This document shows positions 19,007 through 59,038 of a stretch of 64,000 nt of DNA, one piece after another. The notes beneath the pieces are model-generated. The model was given only the letters and a program-made list of their open reading frames with translations. It was not told the origin of the DNA and ran no database searches. The DNA is from an uncultured Clostridia bacterium (GTDB lineage: Bacteria; Bacillota; Clostridia; TANB77; CAG-508), in NCBI GenBank assembly GCA_947625645.1, contig CANQPE010000002.1, forward strand, positions 22,981-86,980, written 5' to 3'. Numbering within the stretch: position 1 is the first letter of the stretch; every line of letters begins with the position of its first letter. Made by a program: the position numbers and the translations under genes.

Positions 19007-19071
19007 GGGACAATTAGGGACGTATCTTTTTTGTCCTTCAAGGACAAAAAAGATACGTCCCTAATTGTCCC
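19007..19071. repeat. Palindromic repeat element copy 1, short form
   Basis: gggacaattagggacgtatcttttttgtcc / ttca / ggacaaaaaagatacgtccctaattgtccc; perfect 30-bp arms; between convergent vanZ and engB, overlapping the engB stop. Confidence 0.9.
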
Positions 19072-21038: not shown

Positions 21039-21102
21039 GGAACAATTAGGGACGTATCTTTTTTGTCCCTGAGGGACAAAAAAGATACGTCCCTAATTGT
21101 CC
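21039..21102. repeat. Palindromic repeat element copy 2, short form
   Basis: Same arms, loop tgag; lies between the DUF1653 gene and the serS RBS. Confidence 0.9.
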
Positions 21103-21109
21103 TTTGGGT

Positions 21110-27140: not shown

Positions 27141-27205
27141 GGAACAAATAGGGACGTATCTTTTTTGTCCGTTAGGGACAAAAAAGATACGTCCCTATTT
27201 GTTCC
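27141..27205. repeat. Palindromic repeat element copy 3, short form with CAAATAGG variant arms, inside the spoVA operon
   Basis: ggaacaaatagggacgtatcttttttgtcc / gtta / gggacaaaaaagatacgtccctatttgttcc; lies between the spoVAC stop and spoVAD start. Confidence 0.9.
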
Positions 27206-28036: not shown

Positions 28037-28116
28037 GGACAATTAGGGACGGGACAATTAGGGACGTATCTTTTTTGTCCATCAGGGACAAAAAAGATAC
28101 GTCCCTAATTGTCCCC
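28037..28116. repeat. Palindromic repeat element copy 4, short form with a 14-bp partial left-arm duplication
   Basis: ggacaattagggac + gggacaattagggacgtatcttttttgtcc / atca / gggacaaaaaagatacgtccctaattgtcccc. Confidence 0.9.
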
Positions 28117-28120
28117 AAAA

Positions 28121-28248
28121 AAAAAATAAAAATTTGCACGAAAAAGAAGATTTGAATCGTTTTATCAATGAAAGAGGAAAAAAGACAGCTAAAAGGGGAG
28201 GCATAGAAGAGAAAGTGGAAAACAAAAAAATAAAGGGAGGGATTTTTC
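28121..28248 (+). pseudogene. Remnant of the ECF sigma-factor 5' region (promoter/UTR and first 7 codons), fused to the paralog-1 start
   Basis: About 90% identical to 30494..30612, including a GTGGAAAACAAAAAAATAAAG start remnant that runs into a stop. Confidence 0.6.
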
Positions 28249-30348
28249 ATGAAAATTAGAAGAAAAATTATTGCGATTGCATCCACACTAGCCATTTTAT
28301 TAGGAACAGGAACAGTATATGCAGCACTGGGAGGAACGATTAATGGAGTGCCAGTGCTAGAATGGATGGGAATCAAAGTTTCAAACCAAGAGGTGGAATA
28401 CATACAACCAGTTCAAAATAAAGTTGTAGAAAATGACATAGCAAGAGTGGCATTAGAATCAGCAGTATGTGACGATGGGTATACCATATTGCAATTTAGA
28501 GTAAACTTAAAAGATAAAATTATGCAACAATATCGAGAAGAGACGGAAGAAGGAACGAATGTACCATTTATCAATTTATTATTCAACGATTCCGCCAAAG
28601 ACTTGGTGGAAAAGGGGGAGTATAGTCTAAGCAATTACCATCTTATTGTTAACCAAGATGGTGTAAATATTAGAAATGGAGCAACCGATCAAACCCTTAA
28701 AAGAATATCTGAAAGTGAATATTTAGTAGATCAAGTATGGTTTTTAGATGACACCATTTTAGGAGACCAAGAAACATTTGAAATTACATTAAGAGACATT
28801 GCTATTAGAATGGAAAATGAAGGTTTTATGATAGATGGAAGCATTCAAACTACATTATCTAAAACAGAGGCAATGGAACAGTCAACAGTTATTATACCTG
28901 AAGAAGAAATGACGCTGACACGAGGAAAAATGAAGCATACCCTTGAAAAAGTAACAATAACACCATTACAGAACATTATAGAATTTCAAACGGTATACGA
29001 AGATGTCAATAGAGACGACTTTCAAAATACAATCCATCCATTAAAATATGAGGCATATGACGAAAATGGGGAATACCTATCAACAATGGATATCATTACA
29101 AAAGCAAACATTACTTACGAAGACGGTTCAGAAGAGGAATATGAATTGCAAGACGATTTTTCAGATGATACGTTTGCTAAAGAAACATTTGAACATGCAA
29201 AGTATGAAATTACTAGAAAAATTGCAATTGACCAAACCAATAAAAATGAAACAATCATATTAAAAGCATTCGAAACGATGTTAGAAGAGGGAAGAGAAAA
29301 AAGAGAAGGCATACAACAATATGAAGTGAATTTTGCGAAACAAACCATAAAAAGTCAAGATGAAGTAGAAGAAAATGAGCAAACAGAAAGTGATGTAACA
29401 AAAACAGAAGAGCCAATAGAAAGTGGTGTAGCGACAATAGAAGAGCAAATAAAAACAGAAAAAACGGGAAACATATTGAAAGCAGAAGTAACCCAAATGA
29501 CAATAGGAATAGAAGGTAAAGGCGTAATAGACGTCAAAGACAAAGAAATAATAGAGCAACTTGTAACAACAGTGAATGAAAAAACGCAAGAGTTCAAAAA
29601 TTTTACTGAAATATTTGGAGAAGACGATGGCGGGGCGGCACCTGCATGTCTACAAATTCATTTAGCTAATGGAAAATTTTATTTTATCGGAGTTTGTGAC
29701 AAGTATGTAAAAGATGCTACAGGCCAATATTATAATGTTATGTTCGTTAGTGAATATAATGAAGCAAACCATGAAAATATCATTAGTGATAAAATCTATA
29801 TTGTAGAAACAGAGTTACAAAAACAATTAGACGAATTATATGAACAAGAACGCCAAGCAAGTCAAACCCAGGCACCACAAGTAGAAGAATCTTATGAAGA
29901 GAAACCTAACCTAGAAGAAGCAAGTACAGAGAAAACAGAAATACTTAGCAATGTGGATTACATAAAAGTTAGTATCTTTGAACTAGAAGAAGAAATGGTT
30001 AAAGAAAAGGCTGTTACAATAAGAGACGCAAAAGAAATCAAGCAATTGGTGCAAACCATTAATGAACATGCAAGCCAATATGAAACATTTTTAGAAGACA
30101 TGGGAGCAGGAGACTATTTTGAAGGAACTCCAGCCATAACAGCATATTTAAAGAATGGAAATGAGGTTACTATCATGGCAAAGGATGACTTTGATAAAGA
30201 TAAAAATGGAAAATTTTACAATGTGTTTGCTTATTATGAATATGAAATGGGGGAGGAAATCCGCGCCGTAAAGGATGCATACTATAAGATAGATGTAGAT
30301 TTGCAACATCAAATAGAAGCATTATATCAAAAATATGAGAGAAAATAA
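28249..30348 (+). CDS. Membrane-anchored large extracytoplasmic protein, paralog 1 of the anti-sigma-like protein, lacking the cytoplasmic N-terminal segment
   Basis: Signal-anchor MKIRRKIIAIASTLAILLGTGTVYA; ~90% nucleotide identity to 31190.. over the first several hundred bp; C-terminal tandem ~125-aa domain pair. Confidence 0.7.
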   Translation: MKIRRKIIAIASTLAILLGTGTVYAALGGTINGVPVLEWMGIKVSNQEVEYIQPVQNKVVENDIARVALESAVCDDGYTILQFRVNLKDKIMQQYREETEEGTNVPFINLLFNDSAKDLVEKGEYSLSNYHLIVNQDGVNIRNGATDQTLKRISESEYLVDQVWFLDDTILGDQETFEITLRDIAIRMENEGFMIDGSIQTTLSKTEAMEQSTVIIPEEEMTLTRGKMKHTLEKVTITPLQNIIEFQTVYEDVNRDDFQNTIHPLKYEAYDENGEYLSTMDIITKANITYEDGSEEEYELQDDFSDDTFAKETFEHAKYEITRKIAIDQTNKNETIILKAFETMLEEGREKREGIQQYEVNFAKQTIKSQDEVEENEQTESDVTKTEEPIESGVATIEEQIKTEKTGNILKAEVTQMTIGIEGKGVIDVKDKEIIEQLVTTVNEKTQEFKNFTEIFGEDDGGAAPACLQIHLANGKFYFIGVCDKYVKDATGQYYNVMFVSEYNEANHENIISDKIYIVETELQKQLDELYEQERQASQTQAPQVEESYEEKPNLEEASTEKTEILSNVDYIKVSIFELEEEMVKEKAVTIRDAKEIKQLVQTINEHASQYETFLEDMGAGDYFEGTPAITAYLKNGNEVTIMAKDDFDKDKNGKFYNVFAYYEYEMGEEIRAVKDAYYKIDVDLQHQIEALYQKYERK

Positions 30349-30360
30349 AAAAGTTCTCTC

Positions 30361-30425
30361 GGGACAGTTAGGGACGTATCTTTTTTGTCCATTAGGGACA
30401 AAAAAGATACGTCCCTAATTGTCCC
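30361..30425. repeat. Palindromic repeat element copy 5, short form
   Basis: gggacaGttaggg left arm pairs with a T on the right arm (G·U in RNA); otherwise perfect. Confidence 0.9.
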
Positions 30426-30590
30426 AAACAGACACTAATTTGTTCGAGAGTTCTTGTAAAAAATGTTTACAAAAAAATGCGGAAATGATAAAATAAAAAA
30501 AATAAAAATTTGCACGAAACAGAAAGTTTGAATCGTTTTATAAATGAAAGAGGAAAAAAGGCAATTAAAAGGGGAGGAATAGAAAGGAAA

Positions 30591-31076
30591 ATGGAAAACC
30601 AAAAAATAAAAGAATTAGTAGAAACATATTCAGATATGATTATGAAAATTGCCTATCAAAACAGCTTTAATAAATCAGATAGTGAAGACATTGTTCAAGA
30701 AGTTTTTTTGAAGTTGATGAAAAACATAAACAAATTAGGAGAGGACAACAATTATATAAAGGCATGGCTAATTAGAGTGACAATAAATTTAAGCAAAGAC
30801 TATAACAAAAGCGCTTGGTATAAAAAGGTAAGAGCTATTGAAGAAGATAATCAAGAATATGAGTTTAACTCAGAAGAACAAGATGTTTTAAAGGAACTGG
30901 CAAAATTAAAACCAGTGTACCGAAATACCATTTATTTATACTATTATGAAGGGTACAGGATACATGAAATTGCCAAAATCTTAAATCAAAATGAAAATAC
31001 AGTAAGTTCCAACTTGACAAGAGCAAGAAAACAATTAAAAGGCATCTTAGAAGAAGGAGGTGAGCTGTATGCCTAA
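30591..31076 (+). CDS. ECF-type sigma-70 family RNA polymerase sigma factor
   Basis: Region 2 (DIVQEVFLKL...AWL) and region 4 HTH (IHEIAKILNQNENTVSSNLTRARKQL); stop overlaps the downstream start (ATGCCTAA). Confidence 0.8.
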   Translation: MENQKIKELVETYSDMIMKIAYQNSFNKSDSEDIVQEVFLKLMKNINKLGEDNNYIKAWLIRVTINLSKDYNKSAWYKKVRAIEEDNQEYEFNSEEQDVLKELAKLKPVYRNTIYLYYYEGYRIHEIAKILNQNENTVSSNLTRARKQLKGILEEGGELYA

Positions 31077-33249
31077 CCAATATCATAATGTCATATCAAA
31101 GATAAATTTAGATGAAAGTACCAAAGAAAACCTTATATTGCAGTTAGAACAAAATAAAACCAAAAAAGTGAAGGGAGTACTTTTCATGAAAATTAAAAGA
31201 GCAATGATTGCGATTGTATCAACACTCACCATTTTATTAGGAACAGGAACAGCATATGCAGCACTAGGAGGAACGATTAATGGAGTGCCAATGCTAGAAT
31301 GGATAGGAATCAAATTTTCAAATCAAGAGGGGGAATACATTCAACCAATTCAAAATCAGGTTGTAGAAAATGACGTAGCAAAAGTAGCATTAGAATCAGC
31401 AGTATGTGACGATGGGTTCACCATATTGCAATTTAGAGTAAACTTAAAAGATAAAATCGTGCAACAATATGAAGACGAAATAAACGAAGGCATATATAGC
31501 CCAGCTATCAGTTTATTTTATAATGAATCAGCTAAAATAGCAGGGGAGGGACAATCATTACCATTGGGTACTGATGGAAATCCTATTATTGGAAATCCTA
31601 TTATTGATGGAAATAGTGTAGATATCAGAAATGAAGCAACCGAACAAACCCTCAAAAGAATATCAATAAGTGAATATTTAGTATATCAAGTATGGTTTTT
31701 AGATGAGACTATTTTAGGAGACGAAGAAACATTTGAAATTGAATTAAGAGATATTGCTATCAAGGTGTTAGGAAGAGACGGTTTTAAGATAGATGGAAGT
31801 ATTCAAACTACATTATCTAAAACAGAGGCAATGGAACATTCAAAAGTGATTACACCAAAAGAAGAAATGACAGTGACACGAGGAAAAATGAAGCATACAC
31901 TTGAGAAAGTAACAGTAACACCATTACAAAATATTGTAGAAATCAAAACAGTGTACGAAGATGTCAATAGAGACGATTTTAAAAATACAATTCGTGCATT
32001 GGTATATGAGGCATATTACGATGATATATACAGTTTATCTACAAAGGATATTGTTACAGAATCACGTATTACTTACGAAGACGGCTCAACAGAAGAACAT
32101 GAAGTGCCAGATGTTTTTTTTGAGAATGATATATTTGATAAAGAAACATTTGAACATGCAAAGTATGAAATTACTAGAAAAATTGCAATTGACCAAAGTG
32201 ACAAAAATGAAGCATTCACATTAAAAGTATATGAATATGACTTTAGGGGAGAAGATGAAAGGAAAGAGATAAACGGCATACAACAATATGATATTAATTT
32301 GGTCGAACAAACCATAAAAAGTCAAGATGAAGTGGAAGAAAATGAGCAAATAGAAAATGATGCAACGAAAGTAAAAGAGAAAATAAAAACAGAAAAAACG
32401 GGAAATATATTAGAAGCAGATGTAACCCAAATGATAGTAGGAGTAGAAGGTAAAGGAGAAATAGAAATCAAGAACAAAGAAGTGATAGAGCAACTTGTAA
32501 CAACAGTGAATAAAAACACGCAAGAGTTCAAAAATTATGCTGAAATATTTGGAGAAGATGATGGTGGCGCGTCACCTACATGGATACAGATTCATTTAGC
32601 TGATGGAAAATTTTATTTTATTGCAGCTTGTGATGATTATGTAAAAGATACTGCAGGTAAATATTGGAATCTTATATTTGTTGTTGACGTCAAAGAGCCA
32701 AAAGAAAAATCCATGCAGAAAGTTTATATCATAGAAACAGATTTAGAAAAAACGTTAGACGAATTATATGAACAAGAACGCCAAACAGCAAGTCAAACCC
32801 AAACGCCACAAGTAGAAGAGCCTTCAGAAGATGAGACAGAAATACTTAGCGATGTAGATTACATAGAAATTAGTATCCCCGAACCAGGAGCAGAAAGCTA
32901 TGTACCAAAAACAGCTACGATAAGAGATGAAAAAGAAATCAAGCAATTGGTGCAAACCATTAATGAACATGCAAAACGATATGAGACATTTCTAGAAGAC
33001 GTGGGAGCGGGAGACTATTTTGAAGGGGGAGCAACCGTCATGGCATATTTGAAGAATGGAAATCAGGTTAGTATTACAGCACTTGATCATTTTGATCAAG
33101 ATAAAAATGGAGAATATTACAATGTGTTTAATTATTGTAATTATGAATGGTATGGAAAAATCCTTATCGACAGAAATGCATATTATAAGATAGATGTAGA
33201 TTTGCAACAGCAGATAAAGGAATTATATCAAAGATATGAGGGAGAATAA
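31069..33249 (+). CDS. Putative anti-sigma factor: short cytoplasmic N-terminus, one TM, DUF4179-like proximal ectodomain and a large ectodomain ending in two tandem ~125-aa domains
   Basis: Translationally coupled to the sigma gene; TM MIAIVSTLTILLGTGTAYA; internal repeat EVIEQLVTTVN... / KEIKQLVQTIN... Confidence 0.65.
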   Translation: MPNQYHNVISKINLDESTKENLILQLEQNKTKKVKGVLFMKIKRAMIAIVSTLTILLGTGTAYAALGGTINGVPMLEWIGIKFSNQEGEYIQPIQNQVVENDVAKVALESAVCDDGFTILQFRVNLKDKIVQQYEDEINEGIYSPAISLFYNESAKIAGEGQSLPLGTDGNPIIGNPIIDGNSVDIRNEATEQTLKRISISEYLVYQVWFLDETILGDEETFEIELRDIAIKVLGRDGFKIDGSIQTTLSKTEAMEHSKVITPKEEMTVTRGKMKHTLEKVTVTPLQNIVEIKTVYEDVNRDDFKNTIRALVYEAYYDDIYSLSTKDIVTESRITYEDGSTEEHEVPDVFFENDIFDKETFEHAKYEITRKIAIDQSDKNEAFTLKVYEYDFRGEDERKEINGIQQYDINLVEQTIKSQDEVEENEQIENDATKVKEKIKTEKTGNILEADVTQMIVGVEGKGEIEIKNKEVIEQLVTTVNKNTQEFKNYAEIFGEDDGGASPTWIQIHLADGKFYFIAACDDYVKDTAGKYWNLIFVVDVKEPKEKSMQKVYIIETDLEKTLDELYEQERQTASQTQTPQVEEPSEDETEILSDVDYIEISIPEPGAESYVPKTATIRDEKEIKQLVQTINEHAKRYETFLEDVGAGDYFEGGATVMAYLKNGNQVSITALDHFDQDKNGEYYNVFNYCNYEWYGKILIDRNAYYKIDVDLQQQIKELYQRYEGE

Positions 33250-33260
33250 AAAATTCTCTC

Positions 33261-33325
33261 GGGACAATTAGGGACGTATCTTTTTTGTCCGTTAGGGACA
33301 AAAAAGATACGTCCCTAATTGTCCC
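33261..33325. repeat. Palindromic repeat element copy 6, short form
   Basis: Perfect arms, loop gtta; lies between the paralog-2 stop and rsmB start. Confidence 0.9.
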
Positions 33326-33353
33326 TCGGCCAGAAAAAAAGGAGGAAGAAAAA

Positions 33354-34676
33354 GTGATTGATAAAGTCAGAGAAGTAGCACTGAAGGTGCTGTATAAAGT
33401 TGATAAGGAGAAAGCATTTTCTAATCTTGTGCTAAATCAGGAGATAAAAGATACGAAAAAAAATGGAGTGCAACTTACACCACGTGATGTGGGTCTCATT
33501 TCAGAGATTGTGTATGGCGTAACCAATTGGAGACTGACCATTGATCATATCATTGAAACATATGCAACAATCAAATTGAAAAAAATTTCGCCTTGGATTA
33601 TGAATATTTTAAGAATGGGAATTTATCAAATTGTATGGTTAGATAAAATTCCAAAATCTGCCGCAGTGAATGAAAGCGTTAATTTGGCAAAACGTTATGG
33701 TCATAGTGGCAGTGCTAGATTTGTCAATGCAATTTTACACAAAATAACAAAAGAGGATTATCATAAAATGACACAAATTGCAGATAATAAACAAAGAATT
33801 TCACTTATGTATGCAATGCCAATGTGGATAGTAGAACAATTACTAAAAGAAAGAAAAACAATAAAAGAAGTAGAAACCATTTGCCAAGAACTAACACAAA
33901 GACCAACGCTTACAATTAGAAGAAATCAATTAAAAATTCAAAAAAAGGAATTTGAAGAACAACTCACCAAGGCACAAATCATATTTGAAAATAGTACGAT
34001 TAATCCAGATTTTTATTACATAAAAAATATGAAACAAATAGAAGAATTGGAGTTATTCCAAAAAGGGTACATGACAGTGCAAGATGTATCTGCTGGACTA
34101 GCAGCATGGTATTTGGAACCAAAACCTGGGGAGACTATTTTAGATGCATGTAGTGCACCAGGCGGGAAAACAACCTATTTAGCAGAAATAATGGGAAACC
34201 AAGGAAAGATAGAAGCATGGGATATATACCCACACAGAACAAAATTAATTCAAGAAAATGCCAAAAGATTAGGAATTACAATCATACACACAAAAGAGCA
34301 AGATGCAAGCATATACCATCCAGAATATAACGAAGCATTTGATAAAATTTTATTAGATGTCCCTTGCATGGGAATTGGTGTTATCAAACGAAAACCAGAT
34401 ATTAAATGGCAAAAAAGACCAGAAGATATACCAGAAGTGACGAAACTACAAGAACAAATCATAACGGCATGTGCCAACTATCTAAAAAAGGGAGGGCAAT
34501 TGATTTATTCTACATGTAGCATATTGGAAGAAGAAAATCAAAAAGTAGTACAGAAATTTCTAAAAAAACACACAGAATTTTTTGCAGAAGAACTTGTTTC
34601 AGAACAAAAAATGTTACAAATTCTCCCAAAAAATGAACAAGATGGATTTTTTATAGCAAAATTGGTAAAAAAATAA
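33354..34676 (+). CDS. rsmB: 16S rRNA (cytosine-C5) methyltransferase RsmB/Sun with N-terminal NusB-like domain
   Basis: NusB-like N-terminus, SAM-binding DxCSAPGGKT, PCMG and TCS catalytic Cys motifs; GTG start after AGGAGG; the ORF-track start at 33285 runs through the repeat. Confidence 0.85.
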   Translation: MIDKVREVALKVLYKVDKEKAFSNLVLNQEIKDTKKNGVQLTPRDVGLISEIVYGVTNWRLTIDHIIETYATIKLKKISPWIMNILRMGIYQIVWLDKIPKSAAVNESVNLAKRYGHSGSARFVNAILHKITKEDYHKMTQIADNKQRISLMYAMPMWIVEQLLKERKTIKEVETICQELTQRPTLTIRRNQLKIQKKEFEEQLTKAQIIFENSTINPDFYYIKNMKQIEELELFQKGYMTVQDVSAGLAAWYLEPKPGETILDACSAPGGKTTYLAEIMGNQGKIEAWDIYPHRTKLIQENAKRLGITIIHTKEQDASIYHPEYNEAFDKILLDVPCMGIGVIKRKPDIKWQKRPEDIPEVTKLQEQIITACANYLKKGGQLIYSTCSILEEENQKVVQKFLKKHTEFFAEELVSEQKMLQILPKNEQDGFFIAKLVKK

Positions 34677-38026: not shown

Positions 38027-38632
38027 ATGAAAAAGAATCAAAAAGGTATTACACTAGTAGCCTTAGTAATTACAATCATTGTATTATTAATTCTTGCAGG
38101 TGTAACAATTGCATCACTAGCAGGTGAAAACGGATTATTAACAAGGAGTTCAAAGGCAGTTAATGCTAATACAACAGGAACGAAAAAAGAACAAGTAGTA
38201 TTATCCTACGACACAGCATCAGGAGCATATTATGATGCAAAATACGTAGACAATTCTGTAACCAATATTGCTCCAAATGGAACAATTACAAAAATAGAAC
38301 CTACGGCATATATTGTTAAGCAATTATTAAAAGATGCCGATTTTACAGAGGTAGCAGGTATCTATGACAGTGACGAGACAAATGCTAAAGAGTATGTTAT
38401 TAAAGATGCTTCTGGAAAAGTTAATGGAAAAGACTTTGACGGCACCTCACAAGAGGAAGTTCCAGACAATTTAACATCAGCTTGGATTCGTTTAAAAGGT
38501 TCTGTAAGACGCGATGCAAATGAAAACGAATATACTGGTAAAAATGGATTAATTCAAGTTCAAATTAAAAATCAAGGGAATGCTTCTATGCTAGCTAAAC
38601 CTTGGTCAGATGAAAAACCATTACCAGAATAA
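38027..38632 (+). CDS. Type IV (pseudo)pilin-like protein, copy 1
   Basis: Class III signal MKKNQKG|ITLVALVITIIVLLILAGV (positive leader, G at -1, hydrophobic helix) but Ala rather than Glu at +5; RBS TTAGGAGGTAAAAAAATG. Confidence 0.55.
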   Translation: MKKNQKGITLVALVITIIVLLILAGVTIASLAGENGLLTRSSKAVNANTTGTKKEQVVLSYDTASGAYYDAKYVDNSVTNIAPNGTITKIEPTAYIVKQLLKDADFTEVAGIYDSDETNAKEYVIKDASGKVNGKDFDGTSQEEVPDNLTSAWIRLKGSVRRDANENEYTGKNGLIQVQIKNQGNASMLAKPWSDEKPLPE

Positions 38633-38673: not shown

Positions 38674-39273
38674 ATGAAAAAGAATCAAAAAGGTATTACA
38701 CTAGTAGCACTAGTCATTACGATTATTGTATTATTAATCCTTGCGGGTGTAACAATAGCATCTTTAGCAGGTGAAAACGGATTATTAACCAGAAGCTCAA
38801 AGGCGGTTAATGCTAACACAACAGGAACGAAAAAAGAACAAGTAGTATTATCCTATGACACAGCATCAGGTGCTTACTATGATGCAAAATATGTAGACAA
38901 CTCTGTCACAAACATTGATCCAGATGGAACCATTACTAAGATTGAACCAACTGCATATATTATTAAACAATTATTGGCTGATAATGACTTCATGGAGGTA
39001 GCTGGTGTTTATGATGGACCAAAAACTACATCAAAAGAATATGTAAAAGATTCAGCTGGTGAAAATCAAGTTAAACTAACAGATGACATTAAAGAAGCTT
39101 GGATTCGATTAAGAGGTTCTGTACAACGTGATGCAAATGAAAATGAAAAAACAGGACAAGCAGGATTAATTCAAATTAAAATTAAAAACCAAGGAAATGC
39201 TTCTATGTTAGCTAAACCTTGGTCAGATGAGACAGGATTTGAATATGAAGCAAGTGAAAAAGAATCAACATAG
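38674..39273 (+). CDS. Type IV (pseudo)pilin-like protein, copy 2 (tandem paralog)
   Basis: First ~85 aa and last ~40 aa nearly identical to copy 1, centre divergent; identical RBS. Confidence 0.55.
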   Translation: MKKNQKGITLVALVITIIVLLILAGVTIASLAGENGLLTRSSKAVNANTTGTKKEQVVLSYDTASGAYYDAKYVDNSVTNIDPDGTITKIEPTAYIIKQLLADNDFMEVAGVYDGPKTTSKEYVKDSAGENQVKLTDDIKEAWIRLRGSVQRDANENEKTGQAGLIQIKIKNQGNASMLAKPWSDETGFEYEASEKEST

Positions 39274-45359: not shown

Positions 45360-45457
45360 GGGACAATTAGGGACGTTTCTTTTTTGTCCCTCAGGAACAA
45401 TTGGGGACAGACCTTTGGAGCATGGGGGACAAAAAAGAAACGTCCCTAATTGTCCCC
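45360..45457. repeat. Palindromic repeat element copy 7, long form (cgtttc arm variant, 35-nt internal insert)
   Basis: gggacaattagggacgtttcttttttgtccc ... gggacaaaaaagaaacgtccctaattgtccc; the insert contains a half-site-like ggaacaattgggga. Confidence 0.85.
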
Positions 45458-45475: not shown

Positions 45476-46399
45476 ATGAAGGAAGAGAAAAAGGCTACGC
45501 GCCAAAGCTATGGAGAGGCGTTAGTAGATTTGGGAAAACAAAATCCGAATATTGTTGTATTAGATGCAGATTTAGCAAGTGCCACAAAAACAGAATTGTT
45601 TGCCAAGGCATATCCTGACCGTTTTTTTGATATGGGAATTGCGGAAGCAGATATGATGTCAACCGCTGCAGGAATGGCCACTTGTGGCAAAATTCCATAT
45701 GCAAGTACATTTGCTATGTTTGCCGCAGGAAGGGCATATGACCAAATACGAAATAGTATTTGTTACCCAGAATTACCAGTTAAAATTTGTGCAACCCATG
45801 CAGGAATTACCGTAGGGGAAGATGGAGCAACCCATCAAATGATAGAAGACCTATCTTTAATGCGTACATTACCCAATATGACAGTTTTGTCAGTAAGTGA
45901 TGATGTACAAACAAAGTGGGCTGTAAAGGAAATAGCAAATTTACAAGGTCCAGTATATTTACGTTTATCTCGATTAGCAACCAATGTGCTATATGAAGAA
46001 AATCAAGTATTTGAAATTGGAAAAGCTGTGCAATGGGGCAATGGAACAGACGGTACCATTTTTAGTACAGGTGTGACAGTGGCCGAAAGTCTAAAGGCAC
46101 AAGAGCAGTTAGAACAAAAAGGAATCCATGTCAGAGTGGTAGATATGCATACCATAAAGCCAATTGATAAAGATATGATTATTAAGGCGGCAAAAGAAAC
46201 AAAACGCCTTGTTTCTGTAGAAGACCATAATGTGATAGGAGGTTTAGGTAGTGCAATAGCAGAAGTTTTAACAGAATATGAACCCAAACATTTTATTCGA
46301 TTGGGTATTCCAGATACCTTTGGAAAATCTGGAAAAGCAGTGGAATTGATGAAATTTTTTGGCATCACAGCAGATAATATTATGAAGCAGTGGAGCTAG
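45476..46399 (+). CDS. Transketolase C-terminal subunit (pyrimidine-binding and C-terminal domains), orphan
   Basis: IAEADMMSTAAGMATCGKIPYASTFAMFAAGRAYDQIRNSI; no N-terminal TPP-binding subunit gene adjacent; the ORF-track start at 45401 runs through the repeat. Confidence 0.8.
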   Translation: MKEEKKATRQSYGEALVDLGKQNPNIVVLDADLASATKTELFAKAYPDRFFDMGIAEADMMSTAAGMATCGKIPYASTFAMFAAGRAYDQIRNSICYPELPVKICATHAGITVGEDGATHQMIEDLSLMRTLPNMTVLSVSDDVQTKWAVKEIANLQGPVYLRLSRLATNVLYEENQVFEIGKAVQWGNGTDGTIFSTGVTVAESLKAQEQLEQKGIHVRVVDMHTIKPIDKDMIIKAAKETKRLVSVEDHNVIGGLGSAIAEVLTEYEPKHFIRLGIPDTFGKSGKAVELMKFFGITADNIMKQWS

Positions 46400-46462
46400 G
46401 GACAATTAGGGACGTATCTTTTTTGTCCCAATTGGACAAAAAAGATACGTCCCTAATTGTTC
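46399..46462. repeat. Palindromic repeat element copy 8, short form
   Basis: Arms as in the family, loop aatt; starts at the last base of the tkt stop codon. Confidence 0.9.
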
Positions 46463-46488
46463 CAAAATAGAAAGGATGGGAATGAAAA

Positions 46489-53581: not shown

Positions 53582-53678
53582 GGGACAATCAGGGACGGTT
53601 CTTTTTTGTCCCTCAAGAGCAATTGGAGCTAGACCTTTGAGGCTTGAGGGACAAAAAAGAACCGTCCCTGATTGTCCC
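53582..53678. repeat. Palindromic repeat element copy 9, long form (caatcaggg/cggttc variant with compensated arms)
   Basis: 36-bp perfect arms gggacaatcagggacggttcttttttgtccctcaag / cttgagggacaaaaaagaaccgtccctgattgtccc; between convergent greA and deoD. Confidence 0.85.
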
Positions 53679-58940: not shown

Positions 58941-59038
58941 GGGACAATTAGGGACGGTTCTTTTTTGTCCCTCAGGAGCAATAGGGGTCAGATCTATGTA
59001 ATATTGAGGGACAAAAAAGAACCGTCCCTAATTGTCCC
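58941..59038. repeat. Palindromic repeat element copy 10, long form; it supplies the last ~14 codons and the stop of the tsaC-like gene
   Basis: gggacaattagggacggttcttttttgtccctca ... tgagggacaaaaaagaaccgtccctaattgtccc; the minus-strand reading GTIRDGSFLSLNIT* is the tsaC C-terminus. Confidence 0.85.

Follow-up and report, generated by a model that had tools for sequence, protein, structure and literature searches.

A probable ECF sigma/anti-sigma module of the DUF4179 class, tandemly copied and with a retained sigma-less paralog, in an uncultured Clostridia bacterium

We examined a duplicated locus in 64,000 nucleotides of DNA from an uncultured Clostridia bacterium (GenBank assembly GCA_947625645.1, contig CANQPE010000002.1, positions 22,981 to 86,980 of the forward strand; this whole stretch is called the window here) and found that it encodes an extracytoplasmic function (ECF) sigma factor and a membrane anti-sigma factor, a stress-sensing switch of a known, little-studied Firmicute type that is copied in tandem. 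Along the locus lie, in order, a palindrome, a 5' remnant of the sigma gene, a first long surface protein (paralog 1), a second palindrome, the ECF sigma gene, a second long surface protein (paralog 2) and a third palindrome. This layout had been proposed in an earlier reading of the same DNA (the original prediction), and each of its parts was found in place (Table 1). With a probability of roughly 0.6, we read the locus as a DUF4179-class sigma/anti-sigma module, tandemly duplicated and under RsiV-like control, in which paralog 1 would be a sigma-dependent output.

The 161-amino-acid (aa) protein is an ECF (group 4) sigma-70 factor. Its scores of 47.6 bits for Sigma70_r2 and 48.9 bits for Sigma70_r4_2 exceed the Pfam cut-offs, as the original prediction anticipated, and it matches the ECF superfamily model TIGR02937 at 84.8 bits (cut-off 42.9). 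It reaches no equivalog cut-off in NCBIfam, scoring 73.9 bits against 190 for SigV and 113 against 198 for 'sigma C'. The strongest evidence that the long protein encoded behind it belongs to a family of anti-sigma factors is that coupling to an ECF sigma gene is conserved in relatives. In the related loci L001-L021, L027 and L028, a sigma open reading frame (ORF) extends up to the start of the homologue or overlaps it. In a distant relative from a Hadza gut Clostridia metagenome-assembled genome (MAG; L022, 5446-7260), the ECF sigma factor and the DUF4179 ectodomain protein form one continuous 604-aa ORF, in which sigma runs straight into the transmembrane segment (TM) and ectodomain and the cytoplasmic anti-sigma segment is nearly absent. 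Upstream of P0023, a homologue with one copy of the distal domain described below, we found only a 90-aa sigma fragment comprising region 2 (L026, 263-535), and behind it a gap of 200 nt. Either the sigma gene has decayed here or the short Logan contig is wrongly assembled. The sigma profiles and the coupling in relatives together bear out the assignment of the locus to a sigma/anti-sigma module.

Paralog 2 is 726 aa long when read from the ATG in ATGCCTAA, a start that reproduces database entry P0001 and fits the N-termini of homologues (MSNKYY, MPSKYQ); the 729 aa reported previously correspond to the ORF from GTG 31060 and need correcting. The short cytoplasmic N-terminus and single TM described for this protein were recovered, and residues 1-39 are the presumed sigma-binding segment. 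These residues contain no cysteine and no HxxxCxxC zinc motif, in agreement with the original prediction, and membership in the zinc-binding anti-sigma (ZAS) group was rejected on this ground. DUF4179 (PF13786) was matched over profile positions 5-92 of 94 at 26.3 and 24.3 bits in the two paralogs, below the gathering score of 30.1. With 30.7 bits the homologue P0023 exceeds that score, and DUF4179 is matched at E<=0.01 by 10 of the 15 relatives. We found no DUF5643 match in either window paralog at E<=1 in Pfam; among the 15 relatives it appears weakly in two, P0023 and P0028 (21.9 and 23.5 bits, cut-off 34). NCBIfam offered no family for either paralog, and Pfam no domain beyond DUF4179.

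The close family comprises only 28 proteins in a collection of 5.8 billion, the nearest outside this genome being 42% identical. Searches of GTDB-representative genomes, a set in which the window's own genome is not among the matches, gave 18 hits, and the genome matches all come from MAGs of uncultured gut Clostridia (human, chicken, goat and roe deer). Most homologues measure about 440-450 aa and consist of the N-terminus, the TM and a core ectodomain. The size once called atypical is therefore owed to a C-terminal extension, the core of about 440 aa being the normal family form. At the distal end, homologues are modular, carrying no extension, an F5/8-type-C 'NADase_transloc' domain (P0025, P0026, P0028 and L010) or the GAGDYFEG domain, of which P0021 and P0023 have a single copy and the window proteins a double one. 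A conserved stalk with swappable tips is what a sensor would be expected to show, and the long ectodomain with its variable distal domains fits the suggestion that these are ligand-sensing surface proteins under proteolytic control. The original prediction had favored an uncharacterized system and had asked whether the proteins match a well-characterized non-regulatory family. They match no such family and belong to a recognized but unstudied class of anti-sigma factors.

The fold of the core ectodomain points to the same class. In an AlphaFold model built with 15 family members, residues 85-420 form two beta-sandwich domains, with a predicted local distance difference test score (pLDDT) mostly of 75-92, and their top match in the PDB is 3FBQ (Foldseek E 1.3e-9, probability 1.0, TM(target) 0.55). 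This structure is the extracellular domain of BAS1627, an ECF anti-sigma factor of Bacillus anthracis that contains DUF4179, belongs to the ECF30 group and has been termed 'unrelated [to RsiV] and uncharacterized' (PMC6066255). Conservation within the family is highest immediately after the TM, in a stretch that reads (A/V/I)-Y-A-(A/V/S)-L-G-G-T-I-N-G-V-P-x-L-E-W-x-G-I-K-F-S. Within it Y63, A64, G67 and G68 are invariant, the tyrosine and the alanine at -1 also across 15 relatives, and both AYA|A of paralog 2 and VYA|A of paralog 1 satisfy the -3/-1 rule for cleavage by type I signal peptidase. The cut that signal peptidase makes in RsiV falls between residues 66 and 67, inside DUF4179 (PMC6066255); it occurs only once lysozyme binding relieves masking by amphipathic helices, and RasP then clears the stub (PMC6066255, PMC8844934). 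The site in the window proteins matches that of RsiV in position and chemistry, while the amphipathic character has no clear counterpart. By analogy, RsiV-like ligand-gated cleavage by signal peptidase would be the most likely mode of control.

The distal part of paralog 2 bears out the two tandem C-terminal domains of the original prediction. Residues ~446-572 and ~596-726 are homologous, with 27% identity over 108 aa and a pairwise E of 2e-10, and a single profile matches the two at E 1e-40 and 1e-51. A word-indexed search with the C-terminal 287 aa missed even P0001 and P0002, so C-terminal regions of long proteins may be poorly indexed, and we used an exhaustive search of representatives instead. 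This HMMER search of 1.84 billion representatives returned only 11 proteins with the domain at E<=1e-3. Most of them are small, membrane-anchored proteins of gut Clostridia, 165-205 aa long, with one N-terminal TM, a single domain copy and the motif GAG(D/G)(Y/F)FEG. None of these proteins has a Pfam family, the standalone genes (after rho, near ferritin, near gatCAB) have neither a conserved partner nor a sigma gene in their neighborhoods, and none of the 18 genome-representative homologues carries the domain. Foldseek found nothing significant in the PDB for the domain model, which weakly resembles extracytoplasmic Firmicute proteins (YycH, 4R7R) and in that likeness gives no clue to a ligand. 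The GAGDYFEG family, which lacks a Pfam model, and its tandem use on an anti-sigma stalk are new.

Paralog 1 originated when the whole unit was duplicated in tandem and a deletion of ~560 bp then brought sigma codon ~7 up against anti-sigma codon ~36. Since relatives have it, the arrangement of sigma with full-length anti-sigma is the ancestral state. The segment 28119-28234 is 90% identical to 30495-30610 and spans the promoter, the leader and ~6 codons at the start of sigma; GTG 28215 of unit 1 takes the place of ATG 30591, the sigma start in unit 2. Unit 1 remains sigma-like to about codon 7 (GTGGAAAACAAAAAAATAAAG) and then continues with the sequence that precedes anti-sigma Met40 (GGGAGGGATTTTTCATG). 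Because both parental sites (30595 and 31157) contain AAAACCAAAAAA, the deletion ended in an A-rich direct repeat; it took out sigma codons ~7-161 and anti-sigma codons 1-~35. The start of paralog 1 corresponds to Met40 of paralog 2, and a strong Shine-Dalgarno (SD) sequence (GGGAGGG) lies 7 nt before this ATG. Having lost the presumed sigma-binding segment in the cytoplasm, its product would be unable to bind sigma. Its N-terminus (MKIRRK, a hydrophobic core, VYA|A) has the form of a signal-anchor or cleavable signal peptide, so the product would be either tethered or shed.

Comparison of the two copies argues that paralog 1 is expressed and useful. Over 676 aligned codons their nucleotide identity is 81% and their amino-acid identity 68%, with an overall nonsynonymous divergence (dN) of 0.19, a synonymous divergence (dS) of 0.37 and a dN/dS of 0.51. 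Relative to outgroups, derived amino-acid changes are symmetric, paralog 1 having 28 and paralog 2 having 24; that the 699-codon ORF is intact at such divergence and changes no faster than its partner is what supports a retained use. Divergence is somewhat faster in the C-domains (dN/dS 0.56-0.63) than in the core (0.42-0.50). In the TM/DUF4179 part and the linker at 416-445 dS is 0.14-0.16, compared with 0.31-0.57 elsewhere, which suggests stronger constraint or partial gene conversion there.

The promoter regions would tie paralog 1 to the sigma factor. When the regions upstream of the sigma genes of close relatives were aligned with the two window copies, one invariant block emerged, AAAAtTTTGCAC...AATCGT(A/T)TT, and the rest could not be aligned. 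A scan for TTGCAY-N14-16-AATCGT found exactly two instances in the window, one before each unit, with 0.06 expected by chance, and the motif occurs once, upstream of sigma, in each of 8 related loci. A -35-like element combined with a CGT-containing -10 element is the form of ECF autoregulated promoters. Judged from this conservation, the motif before paralog 1 is very probably the sigma factor's own promoter. The search for a shared upstream motif that the original prediction had proposed was thereby answered with TTGCAC-N15-AATCGT, and its description of paralog 1 as having lost the sigma gene and cytoplasmic segment while keeping the ectodomain behind a duplicated promoter is accurate; that promoter is phylogenetically conserved. 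Such a paralog, without sigma and without an anti-sigma domain yet kept behind a sigma-type promoter, is new and occurs only in this genome. The region's best sigma-70-like match lies in a 69-nt segment (30426-30494) unique to unit 2, which hints that such a site would give basal expression to the sigma operon and not to paralog 1; sigma-70-like matches in the region are no more frequent than in shuffled sequences. As a separate observation, both leaders contain a 12-codon upstream ORF (MKEEKRQLKGE-E/A; 30544-30582 and 28168-28206) whose copies differ at 4 nucleotides, 3 of these differences being synonymous. This ORF lacks an obvious SD sequence, is not conserved in relatives and is probably due to chance (P about 0.05).

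From these features we infer the following course of events. The 161-aa sigma factor is translationally coupled to the 726-aa single-pass anti-sigma factor, whose short cytoplasmic N-terminus would sequester it, and the two-beta-sandwich stalk would hold out the two distal domains of ~130 aa as the sensor. Binding of an extracellular ligand to the distal domains may expose the AYA|A site just outside the membrane, where signal peptidase would make the site-1 cut; a site-2 protease would then clear the membrane stub and release sigma, as in RsiV. Free sigma would transcribe its own operon from TTGCAC-N15-AATCGT and paralog 1 from the same promoter. The paralog 1 product, a sigma-dependent ectodomain either anchored in the membrane or released by signal peptidase, would most plausibly compete for the same or a diverged ligand and so bring about negative feedback or ligand capture. 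We put forward as a tentative and rather doubtful elaboration that a sigma-induced anti-sigma copy unable to bind sigma acts as extracellular feedback, by competing for ligand or signal peptidase or as a shed soluble receptor, with sensing by the new GAGDYFEG family.

Several results weigh against reading the locus as a DUF4179-class module under RsiV-like control with paralog 1 as its output. DUF4179 stays below its gathering score in both window proteins, identity to 3FBQ is only 9%, and sequence and profile searches of the PDB with the family and with the C-domain returned no match to a solved structure. Given that residues 65-80 combine a mean hydrophobicity of about 0.5 with a helical hydrophobic moment of only 0.1-0.28, an amphipathic masking helix of the RsiV type is not evident, and the short helices modeled at 75-79 and 85-90 have a pLDDT <50 in a region that is unreliable. 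The role given to paralog 1 is drawn only from its promoter and its intactness. A literature search for decoy anti-sigma paralogs, for DUF5643 and for more on BAS1627/3FBQ yielded nothing beyond PMC6066255.

Of the other explanations, the one that survives best takes paralog 1 as an effector, that is, a sigma-induced secreted or anchored protein that captures or neutralizes the inducer with no signaling feedback. Its textbook Sec signal, its position behind the ECF-type promoter only, without the sigma-70-like site of unit 2, and the faster divergence of the C-domains would all suit such a protein; no part of the ectodomain offers a functional clue, however, and the effector is computationally inseparable from a decoy or feedback role. 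We regard it as possible though unlikely. Less likely still, duplication and deletion would have left paralog 1 without a function, on its way to becoming a pseudogene. Its restriction to this genome, where P0002 forms a single-member cluster with no other N-terminally truncated homologue among the 28 hits, and a fairly high dN/dS of 0.5 would agree with decay, but the ORF has stayed intact at dS 0.37 in an AT-rich genome, its changes are symmetric with those of paralog 2, and it keeps a strong SD sequence and the conserved promoter at 90% identity; for these reasons the pseudogene was rejected. Least probable of all, and dismissed here, is the RsgI-like release favored by the original prediction, in which a juxtamembrane SEA-like domain cleaves itself constitutively and a distal ligand or force parts the fragments for site-2 cleavage: the modular build, in which a conserved stalk carries distal binding domains that vary and include F5/8-type-C in homologues, recalls the varying distal carbohydrate-binding modules of the RsgI family, but RsgI_N is not matched at E<=1, the sigma partner is of the ECF type with r4_2 and not of the SigI type, the juxtamembrane region is DUF4179 with a beta-sandwich matching 3FBQ, and fold searches gave no SEA-like match, which makes RsiV/BAS1627 the correct class. 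RsgI membership was rejected on the same counts. We thus retain RsiV-like control, with paralog 1 as a probable sigma-dependent output, as the preferred interpretation.

The palindromes that bound the two units are a genome-wide repeat of the repetitive extragenic palindromic (REP) type and not part of the module. The three at the locus are perfect 65-nt palindromes with 30-bp arms and a 5-nt loop (0 expected in shuffles), and had been described as bracketing the module; the same palindrome is present 10 times in the window, always intergenic and several times 7-25 nt after a stop codon, so the description as a module-specific bracket does not hold. The copies are either 65 nt long or, where they have a central insert, 97/98 nt long; they have perfect stems of 30-36 bp and minimum free energies (MFE) of -49 to -71 kcal/mol, and where they vary show matching changes in both arms. 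No U-tract follows the stem, and because an intrinsic-terminator scan found none in the region they are not canonical terminators. They share with REP and bacterial interspersed mosaic element (BIME) palindromes a short, perfect, intergenic form, many copies and compensated arm variants, and differ in that this sequence was not found in Rfam, the related loci, JGI metagenome contigs (searched with two patterns) or IMG/VR. The duplicated units end exactly at palindrome copies, which is compatible with unequal exchange between palindromes flanking a single ancestral module, though unproven. The idea that the palindromes served as recombination substrates accordingly agrees with the unit boundaries but not with the 69 nt that separate palindrome from promoter in unit 2 alone, because of which a simple repeat-to-repeat exchange is insufficient.

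Table 1. Coordinates of features at the locus and of the palindrome copies in the window.
Feature	Position	Strand	Basis or remark
Extra palindrome half-unit GGACAATTAGGGAC	28037-28050		Adjoins unit 1 upstream copy
Palindrome, unit 1 upstream copy	28051..28115	.	30-bp arms, 5-nt loop; RNA MFE -52.5 kcal/mol
ECF-type promoter motif TTGCAC-N15-AATCGT before paralog 1	28134..28160	+	Pattern scan, alignment of relatives
Sigma 5' remnant, GTG and 13 codons	28215..28259	+	Joined to sequence preceding anti-sigma Met40; overlaps paralog 1 start out of frame
Paralog 1, 699 aa	28249..30348	+	ORF; full ectodomain and two C-terminal domains (about residues 383-535 and 554-697)
Palindrome between unit 1 and unit 2	30361..30425	.	
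Sigma-70-like consensus match TTTACA-17-TGnTAAAAT, 10/12	30466..30494	+	Best in region; consensus match only
ECF-type promoter motif TTGCAC-N15-AATCGT before sigma gene	30510..30536	+	
ECF sigma, 161 aa, regions 2 and 4 only	30591..31076	+	Profile matches
Paralog 2, anti-sigma, 726 aa	31069..33249	+	ATG overlaps sigma stop in ATGCCTAA
Paralog 2 cytoplasmic N-terminus, residues 1-39	31069..31185	+	Two predicted helices, family-conserved, no Cys; presumed sigma-binding segment
Paralog 2 single TM, residues ~40-64	31186..31263	+	Ends in conserved AYA|A (A64|A65), signal-peptidase-I-like site
Paralog 2 core ectodomain, residues 85-420	31321..32328	+	Two beta-sandwiches, 3FBQ/BAS1627-like; DUF4179 C-terminal part and DUF5643-like region
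Paralog 2 C-terminal domain 1, residues ~446-572	32404..32784	+	GAGDYFEG family, motif degenerate (GEDDGGAS)
Paralog 2 C-terminal domain 2, residues ~596-726	32854..33246	+	Motif GAGDYFEG; pLDDT 90.7
Palindrome downstream of unit 2	33261..33325	.	
Ten palindrome copies	19007-19071, 21039-21103, 27141-27205, 28051-28115, 30361-30425, 33261-33325, 45360-45456, 46399-46463, 53582-53678, 58941-59038		

The window itself is low-GC (about 30-35%) chromosomal DNA of the sporulating Clostridia type, with genes including infC-rpmI-rplT, spoVAC/D/E, rsmB and type IV pilus genes. The longest ORF of the rsmB-like gene begins at TTG 33285, within the downstream palindrome; the true start is likely GTG 33355, which is preceded by GGAGGAAGAAAAA (window 33285-33354). 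In the pilus cluster, two adjacent ORFs of ~200 aa (38027-38632 and 38674-39273) have identical first 40 residues (MKKNQKGITLVALVITIIVLLILAGVTIASLAGENGLLTR) and are tandemly duplicated type IV pilin-like genes.

We know of no signals for DUF4179 anti-sigma factors other than RsiV. The class to which the window proteins belong combines a conserved stalk and a juxtamembrane cleavage motif with exchangeable distal domains, whether absent, F5/8-type-C or the new domain of ~130 aa, and these exchangeable tips argue that the RsiV-style signal-peptidase switch may be a common framework that gut Clostridia adapt to different ligands. The intact module beside a sigma-less copy with a sigma-type promoter is a directly testable case of duplicated-sensor repurposing, and a feedback role for paralog 1, if true, would add an undescribed receptor-decoy layer to ECF signaling. 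The reach of these points is limited by an uncultured or poorly sampled Clostridia lineage, by an arrangement seen once and by the fact that no ligand can be proposed.

Among known systems, the most distant are the proteins that the distal domains recall in fold. YycH (PDB 2FGT), the Clostridium perfringens lipoprotein 4R7R and 2MCT of Ruminococcus gnavus share no sequence similarity with the C-domain, their Foldseek matches are not significant and no function can be transferred from them; neither sequence nor profile places the C-domains in the YycH family. SigI/RsgI of Clostridium thermocellum and B. subtilis resemble the locus in having long single-pass anti-sigma factors, exchangeable distal sensor domains and several paralogous modules per genome, and differ in the class of sigma factor, in the RsgI_N domain that the window anti-sigma lacks and in the SEA-like domain, for which nothing was detected here. 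RsiV/SigV of B. subtilis, Clostridioides difficile and Enterococcus faecalis share DUF4179, an AXA-type site directly after the TM (A64|A65 here, 66|67 in RsiV) and, as a prediction, ligand-gated signal-peptidase cleavage followed by site-2 proteolysis. The RsiV ectodomain is unrelated, in that no lysozyme-binding domain (and no further Pfam domain) is present here, the amphipathic helix is not evident, and the window sigma factor scores far below the SigV equivalog cut-off; membership as an RsiV orthologue was rejected on the Pfam and SigV results. The closest counterpart is the BAS1627 type, proteins with DUF4179 and DUF5643 that are partners of ECF30-like sigma factors in Firmicutes. Both have the sigma gene followed by the anti-sigma gene, a short N-terminus, one TM, a juxtamembrane DUF4179 and the 3FBQ fold of two beta-sandwiches, and both are uncharacterized (PMC6066255). 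They differ in sequence, with 9% identity and no sequence-level match, and in the extension of ~300 aa formed by two novel domains that the window proteins add. What was already known is the anti-sigma class; what the locus adds to it is the distal domain family, its tandem use and a retained sigma-less paralog.

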